From NCBI RefSeq assembly GCF_058153355.1, contig NZ_CM177019.1: a DNA stretch of 64,000 nt. The stretch is one strand, 5' to 3'. A program made the position numbers and the translations under genes. How positions within the stretch are numbered: position 1 is the stretch's first letter; each line of letters begins with the position of its first letter. The notes beneath the pieces were generated by a model. The model did not search any database, had not been told where the DNA came from, and saw nothing but the letters and a program-made list of their open reading frames with translations. Below, piece after piece: positions 18,493 through 30,687 of the stretch.

Positions 18493-19944
18493 TTATTTAT
18501 CAGTAGTCAAAACGGTAGCTTGCGGGACGGATGTACCGAAACGGTTTCCGACCAGGAAAGCCAGCAAACTTAGCAGCAACGAGGGCACGATAGGGTGGAA
18601 GCCCAGGTACTGAATATTCAGCGTCGCGAGTACGGCATACAGTACGCCGCCAACGATCATCGCACTTAGCGCGCCTTTGGCGTTGGCGCGTTCCCAGTAA
18701 AGACCCAGCACCAGCGGCCACAGGAAAACGGCTTCCAGCCCACCGAAGGCCAGCAAATTCAGCCAGATGATCATTTCTGGCGGCTTCCAGGCGGCAAGCA
18801 GCAGCAACGCACCGAGAACCAACGTGATCACCGCCGACATCCGCTTCAGACGCGTCTCGTTTTGCATTTGATCCGGACGGATATTCAGATAGAGATCTTT
18901 AATGATCGTAGCGGAACTTTGCAGCAACTGGGCATTGATCGTCGACATGATCGCAGCCATAGGTGCAGCCAGGAAGATCCCGGCAGCAAACGGTGGCAGC
19001 ACTTTTACCATCAACGTCGGGATCACCAGGTCCGGTACGGTGAGATCGGGGATCACCGCCCGACCTAACGCTCCGGCCAGGTGCATACCGAACATCAGGA
19101 TTGCGACCACAATCGTACCGATGATGATCCCCCGATGTACGGCTTTGCTGTCTTTATAAGAGATACAGCGCACCGCAGTATGCGGCAGGCCAATCACGCC
19201 AAAACACACCAGCACCCAGAACGACGTCATAAACGCAGGTGACAGAATATCGTCAGCGCCTTGTGGCGTAACCAGTTGCGGATCGATGGTTTGCAGCGTC
19301 TCTACCGCATTGCTTAAGCCGCCAGCAGCATGGACCACGCCAATAAGCAGCACAATGGTGCCAATCAGCATCACCAGCCCTTGCATGGTGTCGTTCAGCA
19401 CGCTGGCGCGAAAGCCGCCAAAGGCGGTGTAGAGCGCAATGCTGATGCCAAAAATCAGCAAACCTGTTTCATAAGGGATACCCGCCGCGGTTTCCAGCAG
19501 GCGCGCACCGCCGATAAACTGCACGGTCATCGCACCAACGAACGCAACCAGCAAACTCAAACTCGCCAGCCACACCAGCAGGCGACTCTGGTAGCGGGCA
19601 AACAGCATATCGTTCAGCGTCACCGCATTGTAGCGGCGCGCGAGAATCGCGAACTTCTTGCCGAGAATACCGAGCGAAAGCCAGACCGCAGGTAGCTGAA
19701 TCATTGCCAGCAATACCCAACCCAGGCCGTATTTATAAGCAGCTCCTGGCCCGCCGATAAACGAACTGGCACTGATATAGGTCGCGGTGAGCGTCATCGC
19801 CAGCACAATACCGCCCATAGAGCGGCTACCGAGGAAATACTCATTAAGGAAGGTGCCGGTGCTCCGTTTACGCATCGCATAAACAGAGATACCGAACACC
19901 ACCACCAGATAGGCGACCAGCGGTAGAATCACTTCAAGCTGCAT
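18493..19944 (-). CDS. panF: Sodium/pantothenate symporter
   Basis: SSS-family multi-TM protein; start set at second ATG (SD GGAGG 6 nt upstream), 483 aa. Confidence 0.93.
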
Positions 19945-20176
19945 CGTCATCCTCCAGTGGGATATCGCGATAGATAAATTTCACCATCGCCCAGCACAGT
20001 CCAATAAACAGCAGCGGCGTCAGGATGCAAGCCATCTCAAACCAGCGTGGAAAGCCGGTAAAACCGGGGGTAACGCCAGGTAAGTAAGCGGATACTAACC
20101 ATACCGCCAGATACAAAAGGGTCAGCCCCAGCGCCCAGCGCGCCTCTTTATGGGCCTGAACAAAACGAGTGTCCAC
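19934..20176 (-). CDS. yhdT: Small membrane protein YhdT (cotranscribed with panF)
   Basis: 80 aa from GTG start preceded by AGGAGG at 9 nt spacing; overlaps panF start by 11 nt. Confidence 0.8.
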   Translation of the reverse strand: MDTRFVQAHKEARWALGLTLLYLAVWLVSAYLPGVTPGFTGFPRWFEMACILTPLLFIGLCWAMVKFIYRDIPLEDDDAA

Positions 20177-20268
20177 GGAAGGGGTCCTCCTCATGGGGGG
20201 ATACGAGAAACGGGCAATTCTACGGCAACTCTTCAGGCAGGGAAAATAATCTGACAGAAAATTGCCGT

Positions 20269-21225
20269 TCAGTGCTGCTGCAAAAAGTCTTCAATGTCAG
20301 TCAGTGAGGATATCCCTTCCATCGGACCTTGCCGCATTACCGCGAGCGCGCCGCTGGCATTTGCATATTGCAGCGCCTTGTGTGCCGGGATACCGGATAA
20401 GAAAAGAGTGACAAACGTTGCGCCAAAGCAGTCGCCTGCACCCGTTGGATCGATTATTTCGATATCGTGGCCTGCAACATGCTTGGCGTGTAATGTTCCG
20501 TTTTTAATCTTGTAATAGCTGGCCCCACGCTGGGCGCGTTTTATCGCCACATGTTTTACGCCGCCGTGGAGAAGATCGCTAACAATCTGTTCTTCTGACA
20601 GATTTTTGTGACGCGCGAAGAAAGGGAGTTCGCTTTCGCTGGGGATAAAAATATCCGTATATTCAATCAAATAATCGAGAGCCTGCGCCATTTCAGGAAT
20701 ACTCAGCATCTCTTTGCGAATATTGGGATCGAAAGAAACGGTGCCGCCAGCCGATTTGATCGTCGTTATTGCTTTACGCATGACATCGATCATGCGAAAT
20801 GAGAACAATGATGAGCCCACAATATGCAGATGGTTACACTGTTTTAGCAGATCCTTATCAATGTGCTCGGCAGTAAACAAACCGCAGGCGCTGTTAGGGA
20901 TATTAAAGACGAAATCCCGCTGCTGGGGATTTTGATAACTCACGAATGCCGTACCTGTTACGGCATTGTTCATAACATGGATCCCATCGGTAATGACACC
21001 TTCATGACGGAGGCGCTCTATAATGAGTCGGCCAAAATCATCATTACCAACACATCCGAAGAAGATGGCCCGATGGGACAGTTTTGCCACCTGAGCAGCA
21101 AAAATTGCTGGTGCACCGCTGGGAAATGGCCCGATAAACTCCCCAGGCTGAGTGAATTTTTGATGTGGGTTGCGGGACAAAAACTCGGCCAGCAATTCGC
21201 CCATAGCGCAGATAGTTATTGTCAC
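20269..21225 (-). CDS. PfkB-family sugar kinase (island kinase 1)
   Basis: C-terminal DPTGAGDCFGATF and N-terminal GxxxGGAP-like PSGAPAIF motifs; paralogous to ORF 26760-27722; start set at GTG 21225 (GAGG 6 nt upstream; aligns with N-terminus of paralog) instead of ORF-track 21279. Confidence 0.8.
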   Translation of the reverse strand: MTITICAMGELLAEFLSRNPHQKFTQPGEFIGPFPSGAPAIFAAQVAKLSHRAIFFGCVGNDDFGRLIIERLRHEGVITDGIHVMNNAVTGTAFVSYQNPQQRDFVFNIPNSACGLFTAEHIDKDLLKQCNHLHIVGSSLFSFRMIDVMRKAITTIKSAGGTVSFDPNIRKEMLSIPEMAQALDYLIEYTDIFIPSESELPFFARHKNLSEEQIVSDLLHGGVKHVAIKRAQRGASYYKIKNGTLHAKHVAGHDIEIIDPTGAGDCFGATFVTLFLSGIPAHKALQYANASGALAVMRQGPMEGISSLTDIEDFLQQH

Positions 21226-21235
21226 AAAACCCCTC

Positions 21236-22066
21236 TCATTCCTGAAGCCTTTCGCGATTGGACCAGGTAAAGCACTCATTACTGGTATAAAGGATAACGA
21301 AATCAGCCGACTGCAATTGTTGCTGATATTGTTCGTTAATGCTGCGGCTGACGATCACATTTTCTGCCTGATGCAAATGCCCGATAGCAGCCGTTGATGG
21401 CGCAGGATCGGCGGCAACGATAACTGTCTTATTCTGGGCATGATCGAAACAGAGCTGCCAGGCAGCGGCAAGTCTGGGAACGTTGATATTTAAAGTACCA
21501 TCAGCATCCAGATGGCTGATTTCCAGAATGCTGTGTGTAATGGTGAAATGCTGAAGTGCCTGTTCGAGCGGTTTTCCGGCCAGTGCGGTGTCGGGGCGCA
21601 GCATTTCACTGCCAGCCAGTATTATTTCGCCATCAATAAACTGATTTGCCAGCAGCGCATGTTCGGGATCGTTGGTGATCAGACGCAGTTTTTTCACTTC
21701 GCTGAGCAATGGAATGATCTTACGGCAGATTGTCCCATGTCCAAGAAATAGCGTGTCACGATCCCGAATTAACCGTGCGCAATGTCGTGCTATTTCCATT
21801 TGTTGTGCCAGAGACAATGGCGCGATCGGTTGTATCGCTTCTGGTTCAGAGGAGAGTGGTGTCGCAATAGCACCGCCAAATGATCGCTTTAAATATCCCT
21901 GTTGCTCCAGATAACTGAGATCGCCGCGGATCGTCACGCCAGAGACACCAAGTTGCGCAGATAAGTCATCAACTTTGATTTCACCCTGGGCGGCAACAAT
22001 TTCTGCAATTTTTAATCTGCGTTTCAGTAGGTTAGACGATTTTCTCGGCACGTTAACACTCTTCAT
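21236..22066 (-). CDS. DeoR-family transcriptional regulator
   Basis: 276 aa; N-terminal HTH RRLKIAEIVAAQGEIKVDDLSAQLGVSGVTIRGDLSYLEQQGYLKR typical of DeoR/GlpR/AgaR, C-terminal sugar-phosphate sensor domain; stop is 10 nt before kinase 1 start. Confidence 0.85.
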   Translation of the reverse strand: MKSVNVPRKSSNLLKRRLKIAEIVAAQGEIKVDDLSAQLGVSGVTIRGDLSYLEQQGYLKRSFGGAIATPLSSEPEAIQPIAPLSLAQQMEIARHCARLIRDRDTLFLGHGTICRKIIPLLSEVKKLRLITNDPEHALLANQFIDGEIILAGSEMLRPDTALAGKPLEQALQHFTITHSILEISHLDADGTLNINVPRLAAAWQLCFDHAQNKTVIVAADPAPSTAAIGHLHQAENVIVSRSINEQYQQQLQSADFVILYTSNECFTWSNRERLQE

Positions 22067-22239
22067 TGGCCTTTAATGCGTAACACTATAGCCCCTTGTA
22101 TTTTTCTTTGAAAGTTACCCTTCAATAATATCGACAATTCGAAAATAAAAGCATAGGGCAAAAATTGCAGCAAAAATAGCTTAATGCATTGAAAATAAAT
22201 GAATATTTCCATATCTGTCCAAAGGCATCATTGGTTTCA

Positions 22240-22254
22240 TTTTCAAAGTGAAAA
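22240..22254. promoter_or_regulatory. Candidate operator palindrome TTTTCA-AAG-TGAAAA
   Basis: Perfect 6-3-6 inverted repeat in divergent intergenic region between DeoR gene and aldolase operon. Confidence 0.4.
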
Positions 22255-22337
22255 ATAAATTAAGTTATTTTTTGTAAGTTATTTTGATGATATTCGACAT
22301 GCGTCACGCTTTTTACCGCTTTTGCTGTGCTAGTTTG

Positions 22338-22352
22338 CTTTCAAAATGAAAG
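22338..22352. promoter_or_regulatory. Candidate operator palindrome CTTTCA-AAA-TGAAAG
   Basis: Perfect 6-3-6 inverted repeat about 55 bp upstream of aldolase ATG; related copy ttcattttgtaaggtgaa at 22368-22385. Confidence 0.4.
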
Positions 22353-22379
22353 TGAAGATTCTCTTTCTTCATTTTGTAA

Positions 22380-23261
<882 letters not shown>

Positions 23262-23296
23262 GACGTTGTACCCTACAAAAACAATGAGGATTGTTT

Positions 23297-24187
23297 ATGA
23301 AAAATATTAAATTACTTGGTTCCGCTATGATGGTGAGCCTGGCATTGTTCTCGCAAAGTTCATTGGCAAAAGAGTATAAAATTGGAGCTTCATTATTAAC
23401 ACAGCAACACCCTTTTTATATCGACCTCGCAAATGCAATGAAAGAAGAGGCGAAAAAAGACAATGTCAATTTAAGTGTCTCTATTGCCAATCAGGATTTA
23501 AACAAACAGCTTTCTGATGTTGAGGATTTTATTACTAAAAAGGTAGATGCCATTATTATCTCTCCGGTCGATTCGAAAGGTGTCCAGGCAGCGATAATTA
23601 AAGCCGATAAGGCTGGTATTCCCGTTATCACCGTTGACGTTGCCGCGGAAGGCGTTCCGGTCGTATCGCATGTTGCGACCGATAATTACGCGGGAGGCGT
23701 TGAAGCTGGTAAGTTAATGGGCAAACTTTTGAATGGTAAAGGTACTGTAGCCATTATTTCTTATCCTGCACTACAATCGGTGGTTGCACGCGTTGATGGC
23801 TTTAAGAAAGGATTAAGCGATACGCCGGATATTAAAATTGTTGCGGAACAGCCTGGTATTACGCGCGCTGAAGCGTTAACGACTACGCAAAATATTATGC
23901 AGGCCAACGCCAACCTGAATGGTCTGTTTGGCTTTGGTGATGATGCGGCGCTGGCGGCGGTTATAGCGGCGAAATCTGCGCATAACGACAACATCAAAAT
24001 CATTGGTTTTGATGGTATGAAAGAAGCGCGAGATGCCGTTGATAGTGAAAAAACGTTTGCGGCCGTGATTCGGCAATATCCCGATCAAATGGGTGCTAAA
24101 GCCATAGATGCCGCTGTTGATCACCTCAATGGTAAACCGGTAGAGAAAATGATCCCGGTACAACCCGGCGTTTATACAGGTAAATAA
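23297..24187 (+). CDS. Periplasmic sugar-binding protein (RbsB-like)
   Basis: 296 aa from ATG 23297 (GAGGA 6 nt upstream); signal peptide MKNIKLLGSAMMVSLALFSQSSLA; PBP type I fold similar to ribose-binding protein. Confidence 0.82.
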   Translation: MKNIKLLGSAMMVSLALFSQSSLAKEYKIGASLLTQQHPFYIDLANAMKEEAKKDNVNLSVSIANQDLNKQLSDVEDFITKKVDAIIISPVDSKGVQAAIIKADKAGIPVITVDVAAEGVPVVSHVATDNYAGGVEAGKLMGKLLNGKGTVAIISYPALQSVVARVDGFKKGLSDTPDIKIVAEQPGITRAEALTTTQNIMQANANLNGLFGFGDDAALAAVIAAKSAHNDNIKIIGFDGMKEARDAVDSEKTFAAVIRQYPDQMGAKAIDAAVDHLNGKPVEKMIPVQPGVYTGK

Positions 24188-24247
24188 TAAACATCTTCAT
24201 TTCACAACAAAACGTTATCGACGTTTTGTTGTGACACCGAGGTCATT

Positions 24248-25669
24248 ATGACGGATGTTATTCTTGATGTTTCGCATATTGCGAAGACATTTGGTCATGT
24301 TCAGGCATTAAAAGATATTACACTCTCTTTACGTAAAGGGCGGGTACATACTTTATTAGGTGAGAATGGTGCCGGTAAATCGACATTAATGAAAATATTG
24401 GCCGGTGTTTATCCGCCAACCCAGGGAACAATAAAACTACGTGGTGAAACTATCACAATTAATAATCCGCAGCATTCACGTCAGTTAGGGATTGCTATTA
24501 TTTTTCAGGAACTGAGCCTGAGTAATAATATGACCGTGGCGGAAAATATTTATGCCAATAATGAACCGCGACGTTTTGGCATTATTAACGATAAAAAAAT
24601 GCTCGCAGATTGCCAGAATCTCCTCGCGGAACTGGGCATCCCACTGGATCCGCTGGAAATGGTCGGCAATATGTCGATGGCACATAGGCAACTGGTAGAA
24701 ATTGCCAAAGCCTTAAGCTATGCAGCAGATGTCGTGATTATGGATGAACCGACATCTTCGCTAAGTGATAATGAAGCAGAGATTCTGTTTAACATTATTG
24801 AGAAATTAAAGCAGCGAGGTTGTGCGGTTATTTATATCTCTCATCGCATGGATGAAATTATGCGGATTTCAGATGATATTTCGGTGATCCGCGACGGTGA
24901 GTATATCGCTACGCATGAAAAGAAAAACAGTGATATCCAGCATTTGATTGCCCAAATGGTTGGTCGGGAAATGAAAAATATTTGGCCAGCACGTCTTGGG
25001 GAAAAGCCGGATGAAAATATTCCTGCAAAACTGGAAGTAAAAAACCTTTCCCATCCTTCGCTTTTTAAAGAGGTCAGTTTCGCTGTGCGTCCGGGGGAAG
25101 TCCTCGGATTTTTTGGCCTGGTGGGGGCCGGGCGTTCCGATGTGATGAAGGCGCTATTTGGCCTCATTTCGTATCACGGGACTGTGTTGATTGATGGTAA
25201 GGAAGTCAGGATCGCTAATCCCAAACAGGCCATTGATCATGGCATTGCATTTGTGACCGAAAACCGCAAGGAAGAAGGGTTAGTGCTGATGCACGACGTC
25301 AATATGAACACGCACCACGTGGCGTTTCAATATAACGCTTCGCGGATGGGACTCATCAATCACCGACAAGAAGAGACGAAGACGCTGCAATCTATTGCCA
25401 GAATGAATACTAAAGTGAGTTCTGTACATCAGGCTGTGGGGGCGCTAAGCGGCGGTAATCAACAGAAAATCGTGTTATCGAAGTGGCTGGAGAAAACCCC
25501 ACGTATTTTATTGCTCGATGAGCCTACGCGCGGAGTGGATGTCGGCGCAAAATTTGAAATCTATAACGTGATACGTCAACTGGCTGCGGCAGGAACAGCA
25601 ATTATTCTGGTGTCCTCTGAACTGCCTGAAGTCATGGCACTTAGCGATCGTCTGGTGGTTAATGCGTAA
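24248..25669 (+). CDS. Sugar ABC transporter ATP-binding protein, two-domain RbsA-like; apparent frameshift truncates C-terminus (remaining 28 codons continue in the next frame to 25748)
   Basis: Two nucleotide-binding domains (Walker A GENGAGKST and GLVGAGRSD, signature LSGGNQQK, Walker B LLLDEPTRGVD); ORF stops after ...LSDRLVVNA, while the next frame reads MRNKTIADIYSCENLTQTQVMTAATGVR and ends directly before the permease ATG. Confidence 0.8.
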   Translation: MTDVILDVSHIAKTFGHVQALKDITLSLRKGRVHTLLGENGAGKSTLMKILAGVYPPTQGTIKLRGETITINNPQHSRQLGIAIIFQELSLSNNMTVAENIYANNEPRRFGIINDKKMLADCQNLLAELGIPLDPLEMVGNMSMAHRQLVEIAKALSYAADVVIMDEPTSSLSDNEAEILFNIIEKLKQRGCAVIYISHRMDEIMRISDDISVIRDGEYIATHEKKNSDIQHLIAQMVGREMKNIWPARLGEKPDENIPAKLEVKNLSHPSLFKEVSFAVRPGEVLGFFGLVGAGRSDVMKALFGLISYHGTVLIDGKEVRIANPKQAIDHGIAFVTENRKEEGLVLMHDVNMNTHHVAFQYNASRMGLINHRQEETKTLQSIARMNTKVSSVHQAVGALSGGNQQKIVLSKWLEKTPRILLLDEPTRGVDVGAKFEIYNVIRQLAAAGTAIILVSSELPEVMALSDRLVVNA

Positions 25670-25748
25670 TAAAACGATTGCCGATATTTATTCATGTGAA
25701 AATTTAACGCAGACACAGGTAATGACCGCTGCAACAGGAGTACGTTAA

Positions 25749-26738
25749 ATGACAGAGAAAACTCTTGCCAGTCCGAAACCTTCGGAAATTCCCATTGCAA
25801 ATAATTTTAAAAAAGTCTTCAGGCAATATGGCGGTATCCTCAGTGGAATGGTGGTGTTAATCATTCTGTTCAGTTTTATTAATGACAGTTTTTTTACTGC
25901 CAATAACATTACTAATATTATTCTTCAGGTTTCGATAATTGCAATTACCGCCTATGGAATGACTTATGTACTTTTGCTTGGCGATATTGATTTATCGGTC
26001 GGTTCAACCATTGCATTGATTGGCACATTTGCTGCGCTTGGGGCTTCATGGGGAATTCCATTTATTTTATTGGTCCCATTATCCATTATTGTAGCCCTGG
26101 CTCTGGGGATGATAAATGGTGGCTTGACGGCTATAGCGGGTATCCCTTCGTTTATTGTCACCGTTGCTACAATGGGGATCTTCCGTGGTATCGCTTATAT
26201 AGTGACCGATGGTATGCCCATCATGATTAAAGATGATGCCTTTCTGGCGCTGGGGAATGGAGAATTTCTCTATATACCGATTCCTATCTGGATATTAATC
26301 ATCTTATTGCTGATTAACCACTTCATTCTTACTAAAACAACCTTTGGACGAAAAATTTATATCACTGGTGGTAATAAAGAAGCGGCAGTCTATTCAGGGA
26401 TAAATGTCACCCGCTTGAAAATTAAAGTCTTTATGATTACAGCCGTGCTGGCAGGTATCAGCGGGATGATCCTCGCCTCACGCCTCTATTCCGGGCAACC
26501 GAATTCCGCGTTGAGCTACGAACTGGATGCTATTGCCGCGGCTGTACTGGGAGGCACCAGCCTGAACGGCGGCTATGGAACCGTGGTGGGGACGGTGATC
26601 GGCGCATTAACCATCGGCGTTATTAATAATGGCATGAACTTAATGAATGTTCCCTATTTTTACCAGATGGTGGTTAAAGGATTAGTCATTCTTGTAGCCG
26701 TTTATTTTGACGTAAGAAATAAAAGAAAACGCAGCTAA
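25749..26738 (+). CDS. Sugar ABC transporter permease (RbsC-like)
   Basis: 329 aa, about 10 TM segments, start codon abuts the frame-restored stop of the ATPase. Confidence 0.82.
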   Translation: MTEKTLASPKPSEIPIANNFKKVFRQYGGILSGMVVLIILFSFINDSFFTANNITNIILQVSIIAITAYGMTYVLLLGDIDLSVGSTIALIGTFAALGASWGIPFILLVPLSIIVALALGMINGGLTAIAGIPSFIVTVATMGIFRGIAYIVTDGMPIMIKDDAFLALGNGEFLYIPIPIWILIILLLINHFILTKTTFGRKIYITGGNKEAAVYSGINVTRLKIKVFMITAVLAGISGMILASRLYSGQPNSALSYELDAIAAAVLGGTSLNGGYGTVVGTVIGALTIGVINNGMNLMNVPYFYQMVVKGLVILVAVYFDVRNKRKRS

Positions 26739-26759
26739 TCATTTCAAGGAATTAATCAT

Positions 26760-27722
26760 ATGAGTAAGGTCTTCACAATTGGAGAAATTCTTGTTGAAAT
26801 TATGGCGAGTAAAATCGGCCAGCCATTTGATCAACCAGGTATCTGGAACGGCCCTTATCCCAGTGGTGCGCCCGCTATTTTTATCGACCAGGTGACACGT
26901 CTTGGCGTTCCGTGCGGCATCATTAGCTGTGTGGGGAATGATGGCTTTGGTGATATTAATATACATCGTTTGGCTGCTGATGGTGTGGATATCAGGGGGA
27001 TTTCAGTCTTACCTCTGGAAGCCACCGGTAGCGCCTTTGTTACTTATCATAACTCTGGCGATCGTGATTTTATTTTTAATATCAAGAATGCCGCTTGCGG
27101 TAAATTATCGGCGCAGCATGTTGATGAAAATATTCTGAAGGACTGTACCCATTTTCATATTATGGGTTCATCCCTGTTTTCATTCCATATGGTAGACGCA
27201 GTAAAGAAAGCGGTAACCATTGTAAAGGAGAATGGTGGCGTTATTTCTTTCGACCCTAATATTCGGAAAGAGATGCTCGATATTCCAGAAATGCGTGACG
27301 CCCTCCACTTTGTTCTTGAGTTAACAGATATCTATATGCCCAGCGAGGGAGAAGTGTTGCTCTTGTCGCCACACTCGACACCGGAGCGTGCAATCGCTGG
27401 TTTTCTTGAAGAAGGTGTTAAAGAGGTGATTGTGAAGCGCGGCAATCAAGGTGCCAGTTACTACTCCGCGAATGAGCAGTTTCATGTTGAGAGCTATCCG
27501 GTGGATGAAGTTGACCCGACCGGTGCGGGAGACTGCTTTGGTGGCGCGTGGATTGCCTGCCGCCAGCTAGGGTTTGACGCCCATCGGGCATTACAATATG
27601 CCAACGCCTGCGGTGCACTGGCGGTAACCCGACGTGGCCCAATGGAGGGAACGTCTCGCCTTGCGGAAATCGAAGCGTTCATCCAGCGCCATGACATGTC
27701 CATTCGGGAAGCAGCACAATGA
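26760..27722 (+). CDS. PfkB-family sugar kinase (island kinase 2)
   Basis: 320 aa; DPTGAGDCFGGAW anion-hole motif, PSGAPAIF N-terminal motif; paralog of kinase 1. Confidence 0.82.
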   Translation: MSKVFTIGEILVEIMASKIGQPFDQPGIWNGPYPSGAPAIFIDQVTRLGVPCGIISCVGNDGFGDINIHRLAADGVDIRGISVLPLEATGSAFVTYHNSGDRDFIFNIKNAACGKLSAQHVDENILKDCTHFHIMGSSLFSFHMVDAVKKAVTIVKENGGVISFDPNIRKEMLDIPEMRDALHFVLELTDIYMPSEGEVLLLSPHSTPERAIAGFLEEGVKEVIVKRGNQGASYYSANEQFHVESYPVDEVDPTGAGDCFGGAWIACRQLGFDAHRALQYANACGALAVTRRGPMEGTSRLAEIEAFIQRHDMSIREAAQ

Positions 27723-28856: not shown

Positions 28857-30206
28857 TTATTTTTCCTGAAGACCGAGTTTTTTCTCCAGATAGTGGATGT
28901 TAGTGCCACCATGCTGGAAGTTCTCGTCATTCATGATGCGAATCTGCAGATCAACGTTGGTTTTGATACCATCGATGATCAGCTCCTGCAGCGCATTCTT
29001 CATGCGGGCAATCGCTACGTCACGGTTTTCACCGTAGCAAATCAGCTTACCGATCATTGAGTCATAGTACGGCGGTACGGTGTAGCCCGCGTAGATATGA
29101 GACTCCCAACGCACGCCAAAACCGCCAGGTGCATGGAAACGGGTGATTTTGCCCGGACTTGGCAGGAAGGTGTTCGGATCTTCGGCGTTAATACGGCATT
29201 CCACCGCATGGCCGCGAACGTGAACTTCTTCTTGCTTGATCGACAGTGGCTGACCAGCAGCAATACGCAGTTGTTCTTTGATCAGGTCAACACCGGTGAT
29301 CATTTCAGTAACCGGGTGTTCTACCTGAATACGGGTGTTCATTTCGATGAAATAGAACTCGCCGTTTTCGAACAGAAACTCGAAAGTACCTGCACCGCGA
29401 TAGCCGATATCAACACACGCTTTAGCACAACGTTCACCGATGTAGCGACGCAGTTCCGGGGTAATGCCCGGTGCTGGCGCTTCTTCGACCACTTTCTGGT
29501 GACGACGCTGCATAGAGCAGTCACGTTCCGCCAGATAGATAGCGTTGCCCTGACCGTCCGCCAGTACCTGGATCTCGACGTGGCGAGGATTTTCCAGGTA
29601 TTTCTCCATGTAAACCATGTCGTTATTGAAAGCGGCTTTCGCTTCCGCACGGGTCATGGAGATGGATTGCGCCAGTTCAGCGTCGCCGCGTACTACACGC
29701 ATACCACGACCGCCGCCGCCGCCGGAGGCTTTGATAATCACCGGGTAACCAATGCGTTTTGCAATGGCGCGGTTTTTATCCATATCGTCGCCCAGCGGGC
29801 CGTCAGAACCCGGTACGCAAGGAACGCCCGCTTTTTTCATCGCGGCGATTGCGGATACTTTGTCACCCATCAGGCGAATGGTGTCTGCTTTCGGGCCGAT
29901 GAAGATAAAGCCGGAGCGTTCAACCTGCTCGGCAAAATTGGCGTTCTCGGAGAGGAAGCCGTAACCCGGATGGATTGCTACTGCGCCGGTGATTTCAGCG
30001 GCGCTGATGATTGCCGGGATGTTCAGATAACTTTTTACTGACGGAGCAGGGCCGATACAGACCGTTTCGTCTGCCAGTAATACGTGTTTTAGATCGCGAT
30101 CCGCACTGGAGTGCACAGCGACAGTCTTGATGCCCAGTTCTTTACAGGCACGAAGAATACGCAATGCAATCTCGCCGCGGTTGGCAATAACAATTTTATC
30201 CAGCAT
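28857..30206 (-). CDS. accC: Biotin carboxylase subunit of acetyl-CoA carboxylase
   Basis: 449 aa starting [33 protein letters not shown]; ATP-grasp motifs; start trimmed from ORF-track extension (GAGG SD). Confidence 0.97.
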
Positions 30207-30216
30207 GTTCGCCTCG

Positions 30217-30687
30217 TTACTCGATGACGACCAGCGGCTCGTCAAATTCTACCGGTTGTCCACTTTCGACCAGAATTGCTTTCACGGTACCGGATTTGTC
30301 CGCTTCGATCTGGTTCATCATTTTCATGGCTTCAACGATGCACAGGGTATCGCCCACGTTGACTTTCTGCCCCACTTCGATGAACGCTTTTGCGTCCGGG
30401 CTTGGGGTGCGGTAGAAAGTACCAACCATCGGGGAACGTACGATGTGACCACTGATTTCCGCTGCTGCTGGCGCTTCCATGGAAGGAACGGTCGCCGGAG
30501 CGGCTGCGTTAGATTGAGCTGGCTGCTGCATCATTGGTGCAGCGTAAGCTTGTTGCATCACAGGGAAACTTGCGGCAGGAGCTGCACGGCTGATGCGTAC
30601 TGACTCTTCGCCTTCGGAGATTTCCAGTTCGGAGATGCCTGATTCTTCAACCAGCTCGATCAGTTTTTTAATCTTACGAATATCCAT
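30217..30687 (-). CDS. accB: Biotin carboxyl carrier protein of acetyl-CoA carboxylase
   Basis: 156 aa; biotinylation motif [10 protein letters not shown]; Ala/Pro-rich linker. Confidence 0.97.

Follow-up and report, generated by a model that had tools for sequence, protein, structure and literature searches.

Two PfkB-family kinases of the Escherichia coli D-tagatose island and the repressor-linked clade to which one of them belongs

The utilization of D-tagatose by Escherichia coli has been described for an eight-gene tag locus in the strain Nissle 1917 (Ha et al. 2022 iScience, PMC9720028; Park et al. 2025 Microb Cell Fact, PMC12226905). In the published route, the ATP-binding cassette (ABC) transporter TagABC imports D-tagatose, TagD converts it to tagatose-6-phosphate (Tag-6-P), PfkA produces the bisphosphate, and TagY yields dihydroxyacetone phosphate and glyceraldehyde 3-phosphate (PMC9720028). 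As already published, the island enables growth on this sweetener in B2-phylogroup E. coli, including the probiotic Nissle and many extraintestinal pathogens, and the locus is the basis of a published tagatose-inducible expression system. Here, we analyze a copy of it in a window of 64,000 nucleotides (the whole stretch of contig NZ_CM177019.1, assembly GCF_058153355.1, that was analyzed), with emphasis on its two PfkB kinases, kinase 1 (TagK; 20269-21225, minus strand) and kinase 2 (TagD; 26760-27722, plus strand). The paralogue pair, the island, the pathway, and the regulation are all already published; PMC9720028 notes the 51% identity of the pair, and the published work on the locus terms the function of tagK unexplored.

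Several described systems are close to this one. The ABC-type pathway of Sinorhizobium meliloti and Agrobacterium tumefaciens has an ABC transporter and a tagatose kinase homologous to those of the window, and combines the kinase with a GatZ-family tagatose-6-P 4-epimerase, according to Kohlmeier 2019 and Wichelecki 2015 as cited in PMC9720028. Such epimerase-route clusters convert Tag-6-P to fructose-6-phosphate, have neither an aldolase nor a kinase of the kinase 1 lineage (the K clade, below), and carry a single kinase in the operon of the regulator. In the pathway of Klebsiella and Salmonella that uses a phosphotransferase system (PTS), tagKTH is inserted in gatYZABCD (Shakeri-Garakani 2004, as cited in PMC9720028). 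This PTS-type system shares with the window a GatY-type aldolase and a divergent pair of DeoR regulator and K-clade kinase, but uptake gives tagatose-1-phosphate and the second phosphorylation is performed by a FruK-type kinase. The names collide: the Klebsiella/Salmonella 'tagK' is this FruK-type tagatose-1-phosphate kinase, whereas the Nissle tagK (2025) is the repressor-linked PfkB paralogue, whose Klebsiella/Salmonella orthologue is unnamed (STM3251 by our own reading). We read the Salmonella regulator/K-clade pair as STM3252/STM3251 from locus L006; the published source gives only the span STM3251-STM3256. A literature search on the Salmonella and Klebsiella orthologues (STM3251, tagatose-1-phosphate/gatY) returned no functional data, only that span of the Salmonella tag island. 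As a source on the locus, the NAR 2022 'inducible directed evolution' paper was rejected; it deals with a Bacillus licheniformis PTS pathway.

A parallel in layout comes from unrelated protein families. In the enteric uptake system for autoinducer-2 (AI-2), the repressor gene lsrR is co-transcribed with lsrK, whose product makes the phospho-inducer of the repressor, and the pair is divergent from an ABC operon. The tag system is alike in that a divergent repressor-kinase operon, with a weakly, near-constitutively expressed kinase, faces an ABC-transporter/catabolic operon. It differs in that LsrR is a SorC regulator and LsrK an FGGY kinase, and in that a phospho-sugar inducer is only hypothesized for the tag system.

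Two kinases of one family in a published island

The eight-gene insertion lies between yhdT (19934-20176, minus strand) and accC (28857-30245, minus strand), with flanks typical of Escherichia (envR, yhdJ, fis, dusB, prmA, and panF on one side; accCB, acuI, and csrD on the other), and 1419 of 5426 complete E. coli genomes match at least 80% of the region. Its gene set, order, orientation, and yhdT/accC insertion site are those of the Nissle 1917 tag locus (tagK-tagR / tagYABCDE). Identity to Nissle is 97-99% for the proteins (TagK 311/318, TagD 316/320, TagR 274/276, TagC 326/329) and, at the nucleotide level, 94-99% per gene. Eight syntenic genes, near-identical products, TagR operators, and the promoter hexamers are thus all found as in Nissle, the sole exception being tagB, which carries a private 1-bp frameshift in the window copy. 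The region is the published D-tagatose utilization island of E. coli.

A sequence-only reading of the window had proposed that two paralogous PfkB kinases lie in different transcription units near a bisphosphate aldolase, and all three points were borne out. By BLASTP, the kinases share 157 of 311 aligned residues (50% identity, 67% positives, E = 4e-115), and both match the PfkB family PF00294 (153.5 bits for kinase 1 and 144.3 bits for kinase 2; cut-off 25.8). On the minus strand, the gene of kinase 1 comes directly after that of a DeoR regulator; on the plus strand, kinase 2 takes the fifth place in an operon for aldolase, sugar-binding protein, ABC ATPase, permease, kinase, and a DUF4432 protein. 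For these divergent operons, differential RNA sequencing in Nissle found only two transcription start sites, one per operon (PMC12226905). The aldolase (22407-23261) is of the GatY type, with 473.8 bits for TIGR01858 (cut-off 443.55) and 523.2 bits for NF009374 GatY (cut-off 383). The list of motifs proposed to be common to the two kinases held in part: PSGAPAIF, DPTGAGDCFG, ALQYANA(S/C)GALAV, and GPMEG are found in both, but TIGExL and RGPMEG are exact only in kinase 2, the kinase 1 equivalents being AMGELL and RQGPMEG. Both kinases have the catalytic aspartate of GAGD (TagD D258, TagK D265; DPTGAGD) and the SGAPA sugar loop, and the two motifs are invariant in 89 family members, save for one K-clade sequence with glycine in place of the catalytic aspartate.

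For both kinases, the best NCBIfam model is that of tagatose kinase, NF049991 (346.4 bits for kinase 1 and 413.4 bits for kinase 2), followed by the models for KDG kinase, fructokinase, IolC, and ribokinase. Neither reaches the equivalog cut-off of 420 bits, kinase 2 falling short by 6.6 bits; the Yersinia orthologue of kinase 2 scores 426.6 bits. By clade, the scores are 346-369 bits for the K clade (363-369 for the orthologues of kinase 1), 413-427 bits for the D clade of enterobacterial TagD proteins, and 450-488 bits for the epimerase-route proteins. Neither kinase is LacC/FruK-like, and the earlier suggestion that one of them might be did not hold. Although LacC/FruK/Pfk-2 kinases share the PfkB superfamily fold and the catalytic GAGD aspartate with both kinases, the subfamily scores fall far below the cut-offs: 49.7 and 45.2 bits for TIGR03168 (LacC/FruK/Pfk-2; cut-off 216.4) and 47.2 and 41.0 bits for TIGR03828 (cut-off 292), for kinases 1 and 2, respectively. 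As a positive control, the 304-residue kinase of the K. pneumoniae PTS cluster scores 311.3 and 311.6 bits with the same two models.

By its near-identity to Nissle TagD, kinase 2 is the D-tagatose kinase and the enzyme of catabolic flux. In-frame deletion of tagD in Nissle abolished both growth on tagatose and its consumption; to grow on D-tagatose, Nissle required the six-gene operon tagYABCDE, and this operon, without tagK, was enough for K-12, B, and W strains (PMC9720028). In K-12 carrying the operon on a plasmid, a pfkA deletion prevented growth on tagatose whereas a pfkB deletion did not, and the identity of the TagD product as Tag-6-P was inferred from this PfkA dependence (PMC9720028). 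The step from Tag-6-P to tagatose-1,6-bisphosphate is therefore ascribed to host PfkA. Of the sequential phosphorylation proposed from the sequence, the succession of D-tagatose, 6-phosphate, 1,6-bisphosphate, and class II aldolase stands, but in the published test the second step falls to PfkA and is not assigned to kinase 1.

A rival reading nevertheless gives that step to kinase 1, as a Tag-6-P 1-kinase, so that TagD and then TagK would make tagatose-1,6-bisphosphate for TagY. The pathway needs such an activity and the island holds no other candidate for it; the inability of TagK to replace TagD in vivo fits a differing substrate; and the PfkA experiment leaves this model untouched, because its plasmid lacked tagK. 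However, the six-gene operon functions without tagK in four laboratory strains, and tagatose raises the tagRK transcripts only about 2-fold, compared to >1000-fold for tagYAB and 40- to >1000-fold for the flux genes overall (PMC9720028). TagK is also far from LacC/FruK/Pfk-2 both by profile (the TIGR03168 score given above) and by fold ranking. Together with the gene neighborhoods and the sugar pocket described below, these points make a Tag-6-P kinase quite unlikely.

A repressor-linked clade and its sugar pocket

Gene neighborhoods were compared in 73 loci from species-representative genomes and eight context loci, with the neighbors annotated by BLAST. Klebsiella, Yersinia, Serratia, Salmonella, Citrobacter, Buttiauxella, Gilliamella, and others have homologues that resemble kinase 1 more closely (57-89% identity) than kinase 2 does. 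In the ABC-type architecture, a series of DUF4432 or GatZ, TagD, TagC, TagB, TagA, and aldolase is divergent from the regulator-kinase pair (E. coli, Enterobacter, Trabulsiella, Superficieibacter, K. spallanzanii, Serratia, Yersinia, Budvicia, Erwinia). In the PTS type, the series divergent from that pair consists of gat genes in some loci, EIIA/HPr, EIIBC, a FruK-type kinase, and aldolase (K. pneumoniae, K. oxytoca, K. grimontii, Salmonella, Kluyvera, Lelliottia, Citrobacter, Buttiauxella, Gilliamella, Zophobihabitans, Izhakiella, Tatumella). The epimerase type runs regulator-(ABC)-kinase-GatZ-like epimerase, without an aldolase, in Burkholderiaceae, Halomonas, and others.

A joint tree groups the regulator-linked kinases into the K clade (bootstrap 100/100) and the transporter-linked enterobacterial TagD proteins into the D clade (99/100); TagD is 57-61% identical to Burkholderiaceae members of the epimerase-route group. 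The K-clade gene directly follows a TagR-type DeoR regulator on the same strand in 33/33 cases (14 ABC-type, 19 PTS-type). Kinase 1 is thus no recent spare copy but belongs to a distinct, strongly supported clade of the tagatose kinase family. A recent E. coli duplication of tagD as its origin is rejected by the separate position of this clade in the tree.

The gene is clearly under purifying selection: the ratio of nonsynonymous to synonymous substitution rates (dN/dS) is 0.05-0.10 for tagK, similar to tagD and tagY and slightly above the 0.03-0.04 of tagD. This bears on a second rival explanation, in which kinase 1 is a redundant duplicate without a specific role, drifting to loss. Such drift would account for the annotation of tagK as a pseudogene in a few B2 strains (PMC9720028), for truncated copies in Sodalis and Erwinia endophytica, and for Enterobacter sp. 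BIGb0383, where an island at the panF/yhdT site (L051 2800-10945) has tagR and tagYABCD while tblastn finds tagK absent. This natural tagK-less island, together with heterologous growth without tagK, indicates that kinase 1 is dispensable for growth on tagatose, as a decaying duplicate would be. Yet the selection on the gene, the age and monophyly of its clade across Enterobacterales and Orbales, the conserved translational-coupling junction, and the intact catalytic residues all speak against decay, which we regard as highly improbable.

For a Tag-6-P kinase, the neighborhoods point in two directions. K-clade genes accompany the aldolase route and are missing from epimerase-route clusters, and in Klebsiella and Salmonella the adjacent gat genes make Tag-6-P. 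However, the PTS clusters encode a true enzyme of the 1-phosphofructokinase type, the 304-residue kinase (311.6 bits for TIGR03828), so they own a second-step kinase and yet keep the K-clade gene. The gene is kept even in the PTS-type loci of Gilliamella, Zophobihabitans, Izhakiella, and Tatumella, which have a FruK-type kinase of their own and no neighboring gat genes as a source of Tag-6-P. The existence of a natural island without tagK also argues against a second step by TagK.

The intergenic regions between regulator and aldolase show recurrent TagR-operator-like motifs (CTTTCAAAATGAAAG) in ABC-type and PTS-type loci alike. Since both these motifs and the regulator-kinase pair recur in the two types, regulator, operator, and K-clade kinase appear to behave as one module that is joined to differing uptake and catabolic modules. 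Homologues of the tagR/tagK pair were reported to be confined to Enterobacterales, with a limited role suggested (PMC9720028); the tie of the repressor-linked clade to both ABC- and PTS-type tagatose systems goes beyond that report.

The AlphaFold2 model of kinase 1 (predicted local distance difference test, pLDDT, 92.5; predicted template-modeling score, pTM, 0.93) has TM-scores of 0.93-0.96 to the TagD structures 3IQ0 and 3K9E, crystal structures to which kinase 2 is ~99% identical and which were deposited as 'putative ribokinase II'. A ribokinase-like α/β fold with a β-sheet lid is thereby found for kinase 2 by near-identity to the crystal structures and for kinase 1 by the predicted model. 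After TagD, the structural neighbors of kinase 1 are KDG kinases, fructokinases, IolC, and ribokinases, and no LacC/FruK/Pfk-2 structure is among its top 50. Sugar contacts were mapped by homology from the ligand contacts of V. cholerae fructokinase (VcFRK; PMC6240065) to TagD as follows.

VcFRK D26, sugar hydroxyl: TagD E9
VcFRK D30, sugar hydroxyl: TagD E13
VcFRK G45/A46, main-chain contacts: TagD G36/A37
VcFRK N49, sugar contact: TagD I40
VcFRK R176, sugar O2 / γ-phosphate: TagD R169
VcFRK D266, catalytic base: TagD D258
VcFRK F113, lid: TagD F104

The clade alignment comprised 33 K-clade, 16 enterobacterial D-clade, and 40 epimerase-route sequences, and 83 of its 313 columns are invariant over the three clades. 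E9, E13, G36, A37, I40, R169, and F104 are 100% identical in all three, and the catalytic D258 is the same save for the single K-clade glycine mentioned above. The lid residue F106 (VcFRK F115) is phenylalanine in the K and D clades and tyrosine in 30 of the 40 epimerase-route proteins. The K-specific swaps are mostly conservative hydrophobic ones (I10L, I14F, I42A, I55F, L202F, Y/W264F, C267L), with K149R and E222H in addition. No gain of an arginine or lysine able to bind a substrate phosphate was found in the K clade; the only candidates, K149R, E222H, and D/E180Q, lie by sequence position outside the mapped sugar-contact and catalytic motifs. A pocket equal to that of the free-tagatose kinases, with no basic residue gained, is a further point against a Tag-6-P kinase. 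Because this pocket is identical to that of tagatose kinases, kinase 1 most likely still phosphorylates free D-tagatose, as judged from the alignment. Near catalysis, the lid tip is the only place where the K clade differs systematically. The equivalent of VcFRK E110 is glutamine in TagK (Q102) and in 16 of the 33 K-clade members, and the E110Q variant of VcFRK is >100-fold slower (PMC6240065). With glutamine in place of the acidic lid residue that steers the ATP γ-phosphate, TagK is possibly a slow enzyme.

A possible role for kinase 1

The most economical proposal is that kinase 1 has the same chemistry as the tagatose kinases but a regulatory or salvage role, a reading that its sequence and context leave evenly balanced in our judgment. 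TagK would be made together with TagR at a low, near-constitutive level and would phosphorylate free D-tagatose at low flux, possibly slowly. It could thus make the first Tag-6-P before the catabolic operon opens and, provided that TagR responds to the phosphorylated sugar, prime induction. DeoR-family repressors mostly sense sugar phosphates, an example being Lactococcus LacR, which senses Tag-6-P, and this is what makes a priming role attractive. Alternatively, TagK may scavenge free tagatose in PTS-type systems.

A broader version is possible, though we consider it doubtful: TagK-type proteins would be priming kinases, Tag-6-P the true inducer of TagR, and operator, repressor, and kinase a portable sensor module of Enterobacterales and Orbales. 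By analogy with lsrRK, this module would be combined with either ABC/TagD or PTS/FruK-type catabolic modules, applying a similar logic to a dietary rare sugar. If TagK makes the real inducer, the model of TagR induction by free tagatose and the design of tagatose-inducible circuits would need revision, and the same sensor module would explain tagatose regulation in Klebsiella, Salmonella, Yersinia, and the bee-gut Gilliamella.

Several observations weigh against the proposed role. Chief among them, the Nissle tagD deletion strain, with tagK intact, showed no growth on tagatose and no detectable consumption of it (PMC9720028), so any flux through TagK as a tagatose kinase must be very small; another substrate would account for the phenotype just as well. 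The K-clade proteins consistently score below the NF049991 cut-off (346-369 vs 420 bits), and the tip of their lid differs, with G100 lost and K109 replaced by proline; specificity could differ on either account. Regulator-kinase operons also occur in Burkholderiaceae, and the adjacency of regulator and kinase could therefore be inherited synteny rather than functional coupling. Finally, the authors of the Nissle locus take the TagR effector to be free tagatose, which is an assumption.

The first two of these observations lead to a third rival explanation, according to which kinase 1 acts on a different free ketohexose or polyol (e.g., D-sorbose, D-psicose, D-fructose, or a tagatose anomer) that is taken up through other routes and supplies the same aldolase or regulator. 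The fully tagatose-negative phenotype of the tagD deletion, the separate lineage of the K clade with scores always under the cut-off, and its systematic changes at the lid tip and next to the pocket (I42A, W/L29F, Y/W264F, K109P, and the loss of G100) would all fit such a substrate. On the other hand, the hydrogen-bonding sugar-contact positions inferred from VcFRK are invariant across the clades, K-clade genes occur nowhere but in tagatose clusters, where they go with a TagR-type repressor and its operators, and a second transporter or extra catabolic enzyme never travels with them. We therefore consider a different substrate rather unlikely.

Start codon, locus features, and minor observations

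The sequence-only reading had placed the start of kinase 1 at GTG 21225 and called the open reading frame (ORF) start at 21279 overextended, and GTG 21225 is indeed the right start of tagK. On the minus strand, the tagR/tagK junction reads CAG GAA TGA GAGGGG TTTT GTG ACA ATA, in which the tagR stop (21238-21236) is followed by a strong Shine-Dalgarno (SD) sequence and the GTG. No SD sequence precedes ATG 21279, the ORF maximum, or ATG 21204, the RefSeq/PGAP start that gives a gene of 936 bp. All orthologues (32/32) have ATG or GTG at the position of 21225, and this codon lies 9-11 nt past the regulator stop in 25 of the 31 measured, whereas the residue aligned to the RefSeq methionine is isoleucine or leucine in 24/32. 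Residues 4-8 of the kinase 1 model form β-strand 1 (pLDDT ~95) and align with β-strand 1 of 3IQ0. The SD sequence, the conservation of the start among orthologues, and β-strand 1 together reject both ATG 21279 and ATG 21204. Because the SD sequence overlaps the tagR stop and the spacing is conserved, tagK is probably translationally coupled to tagR. The RefSeq/PGAP records of E. coli tagK (WP_032185217.1 and WP_001298584.1) begin at ATG 21204 (L001 3170-4105; L083 1650-2585), seven codons short; this start would delete the first β-strand, which matters when cloning tagK.

The features of the island are as follows.

20269-21225, minus strand: tagK (kinase 1), PfkB kinase of 318 residues from GTG 21225; PF00294
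21226-21238, minus strand: tagR-tagK junction, TGA 21238-21236, Shine-Dalgarno GAGGGG, 4-nt spacer; read from the sequence, junction also in Nissle
21236-22066, minus strand: tagR, DeoR-family repressor of the tag operon; HTH_DeoR and DeoRC; 274/276 identical to Nissle TagR
22085-22112, minus strand: Preg promoter, driving tagR-tagK, TTCAAA-16 nt-TATAGT by scan; hexamers and spacing as published for Nissle
22338-22356, plus strand: tagO1, 18/19 match to the published TagR operator, at Ptag
22362-22380, minus strand: tagO2, 19/19 match to the published TagR operator, at Ptag
22407-23261, plus strand: tagY, class II D-tagatose-1,6-bisphosphate aldolase, GatY-like; PF01116
23297-24187, plus strand: tagA, periplasmic sugar-binding protein of the ABC transporter; Peripla_BP_4; RefSeq coordinates carried over from locus L001
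24248-25748, plus strand: tagB, ABC ATPase; frameshifted, ORF ends at 25669
25749-26738, plus strand: tagC, ABC permease; BPD_transp_2
26760-27722, plus strand: tagD (kinase 2), D-tagatose kinase; 316/320 identical to Nissle ECOLIN_RS18675
27719-28765, plus strand: tagE, DUF4432 / aldose-1-epimerase-like, function predicted; PF14486, 339.4 bits

The repressor function of TagR, the Preg hexamers, and the operators are published for Nissle (PMC12226905). A search of TagR against PDB sequences detected no relative of solved structure at E ≤ 0.001. A third TagR-operator-like site (CTTTGAAAATGAAAC) lies at 22234-22248 on the minus strand, between Preg and Ptag and ~100 bp upstream of tagO1, and matches 13/15 positions of the tagO1 core. 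This candidate site is not described in PMC12226905 and at the same stringency was not found in loci L010 and L011; it could have a part in autoregulation or in looping of the DeoR type. The gap from the tagK stop to yhdT (20177-20268) holds only a weak 7-bp inverted repeat (ACGGCAA...TTGCCGT; 33-nt loop); nothing resembling an intrinsic terminator was found there, and tagRK transcripts may for this reason read through into yhdT-panF-prmA.

The tagB lesion, located by alignment to L001, is a 1-bp insertion of an extra T at ~25659 (25655-25669; GGTGGTTAATG vs GGTGGTAATG). It shifts the frame at codon ~471, so that the product ends at the stop at 25669 with 473 residues instead of 499 and loses the 28 C-terminal residues. 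Of 1420 complete E. coli genomes with the island, none has the insertion, which is therefore either an error of sequencing or a mutation private to the source strain that inactivates tagatose uptake.

At the other end of the operon, the stop of tagD and the start of tagE share the four nucleotides ATGA (27719-27722). One public protein record (P0122, 493 residues, PfkB plus DUF4432) is a TagD-TagE fusion, which probably results from a frameshift at this junction. The tagE product has no match among NCBIfam models. The final gene of the ABC-type operon varies: it is DUF4432 (tagE) in E. coli, Enterobacter, Superficieibacter, and K. spallanzanii, a GatZ-like protein takes its position in Serratia sp. 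H1w (L016) and Budvicia diplopodorum (L067), and Yersinia (L002) and Trabulsiella (L012/L014/L019) have no gene there. This variability suggests that tagE is accessory and not a core step.

Two loci from uncultured Gilliamella metagenome-assembled genomes depart from the common layouts. In L032, regulator and K-clade kinase (R>K>) are followed by a convergent D<C<B<A< series, with no aldolase nearby, and L077 combines Y>A>B>C>D> with a regulator in convergent orientation and lacks a K-clade gene. With these Gilliamella loci, the Orbales carry PTS-type, ABC-type, and mixed arrangements.

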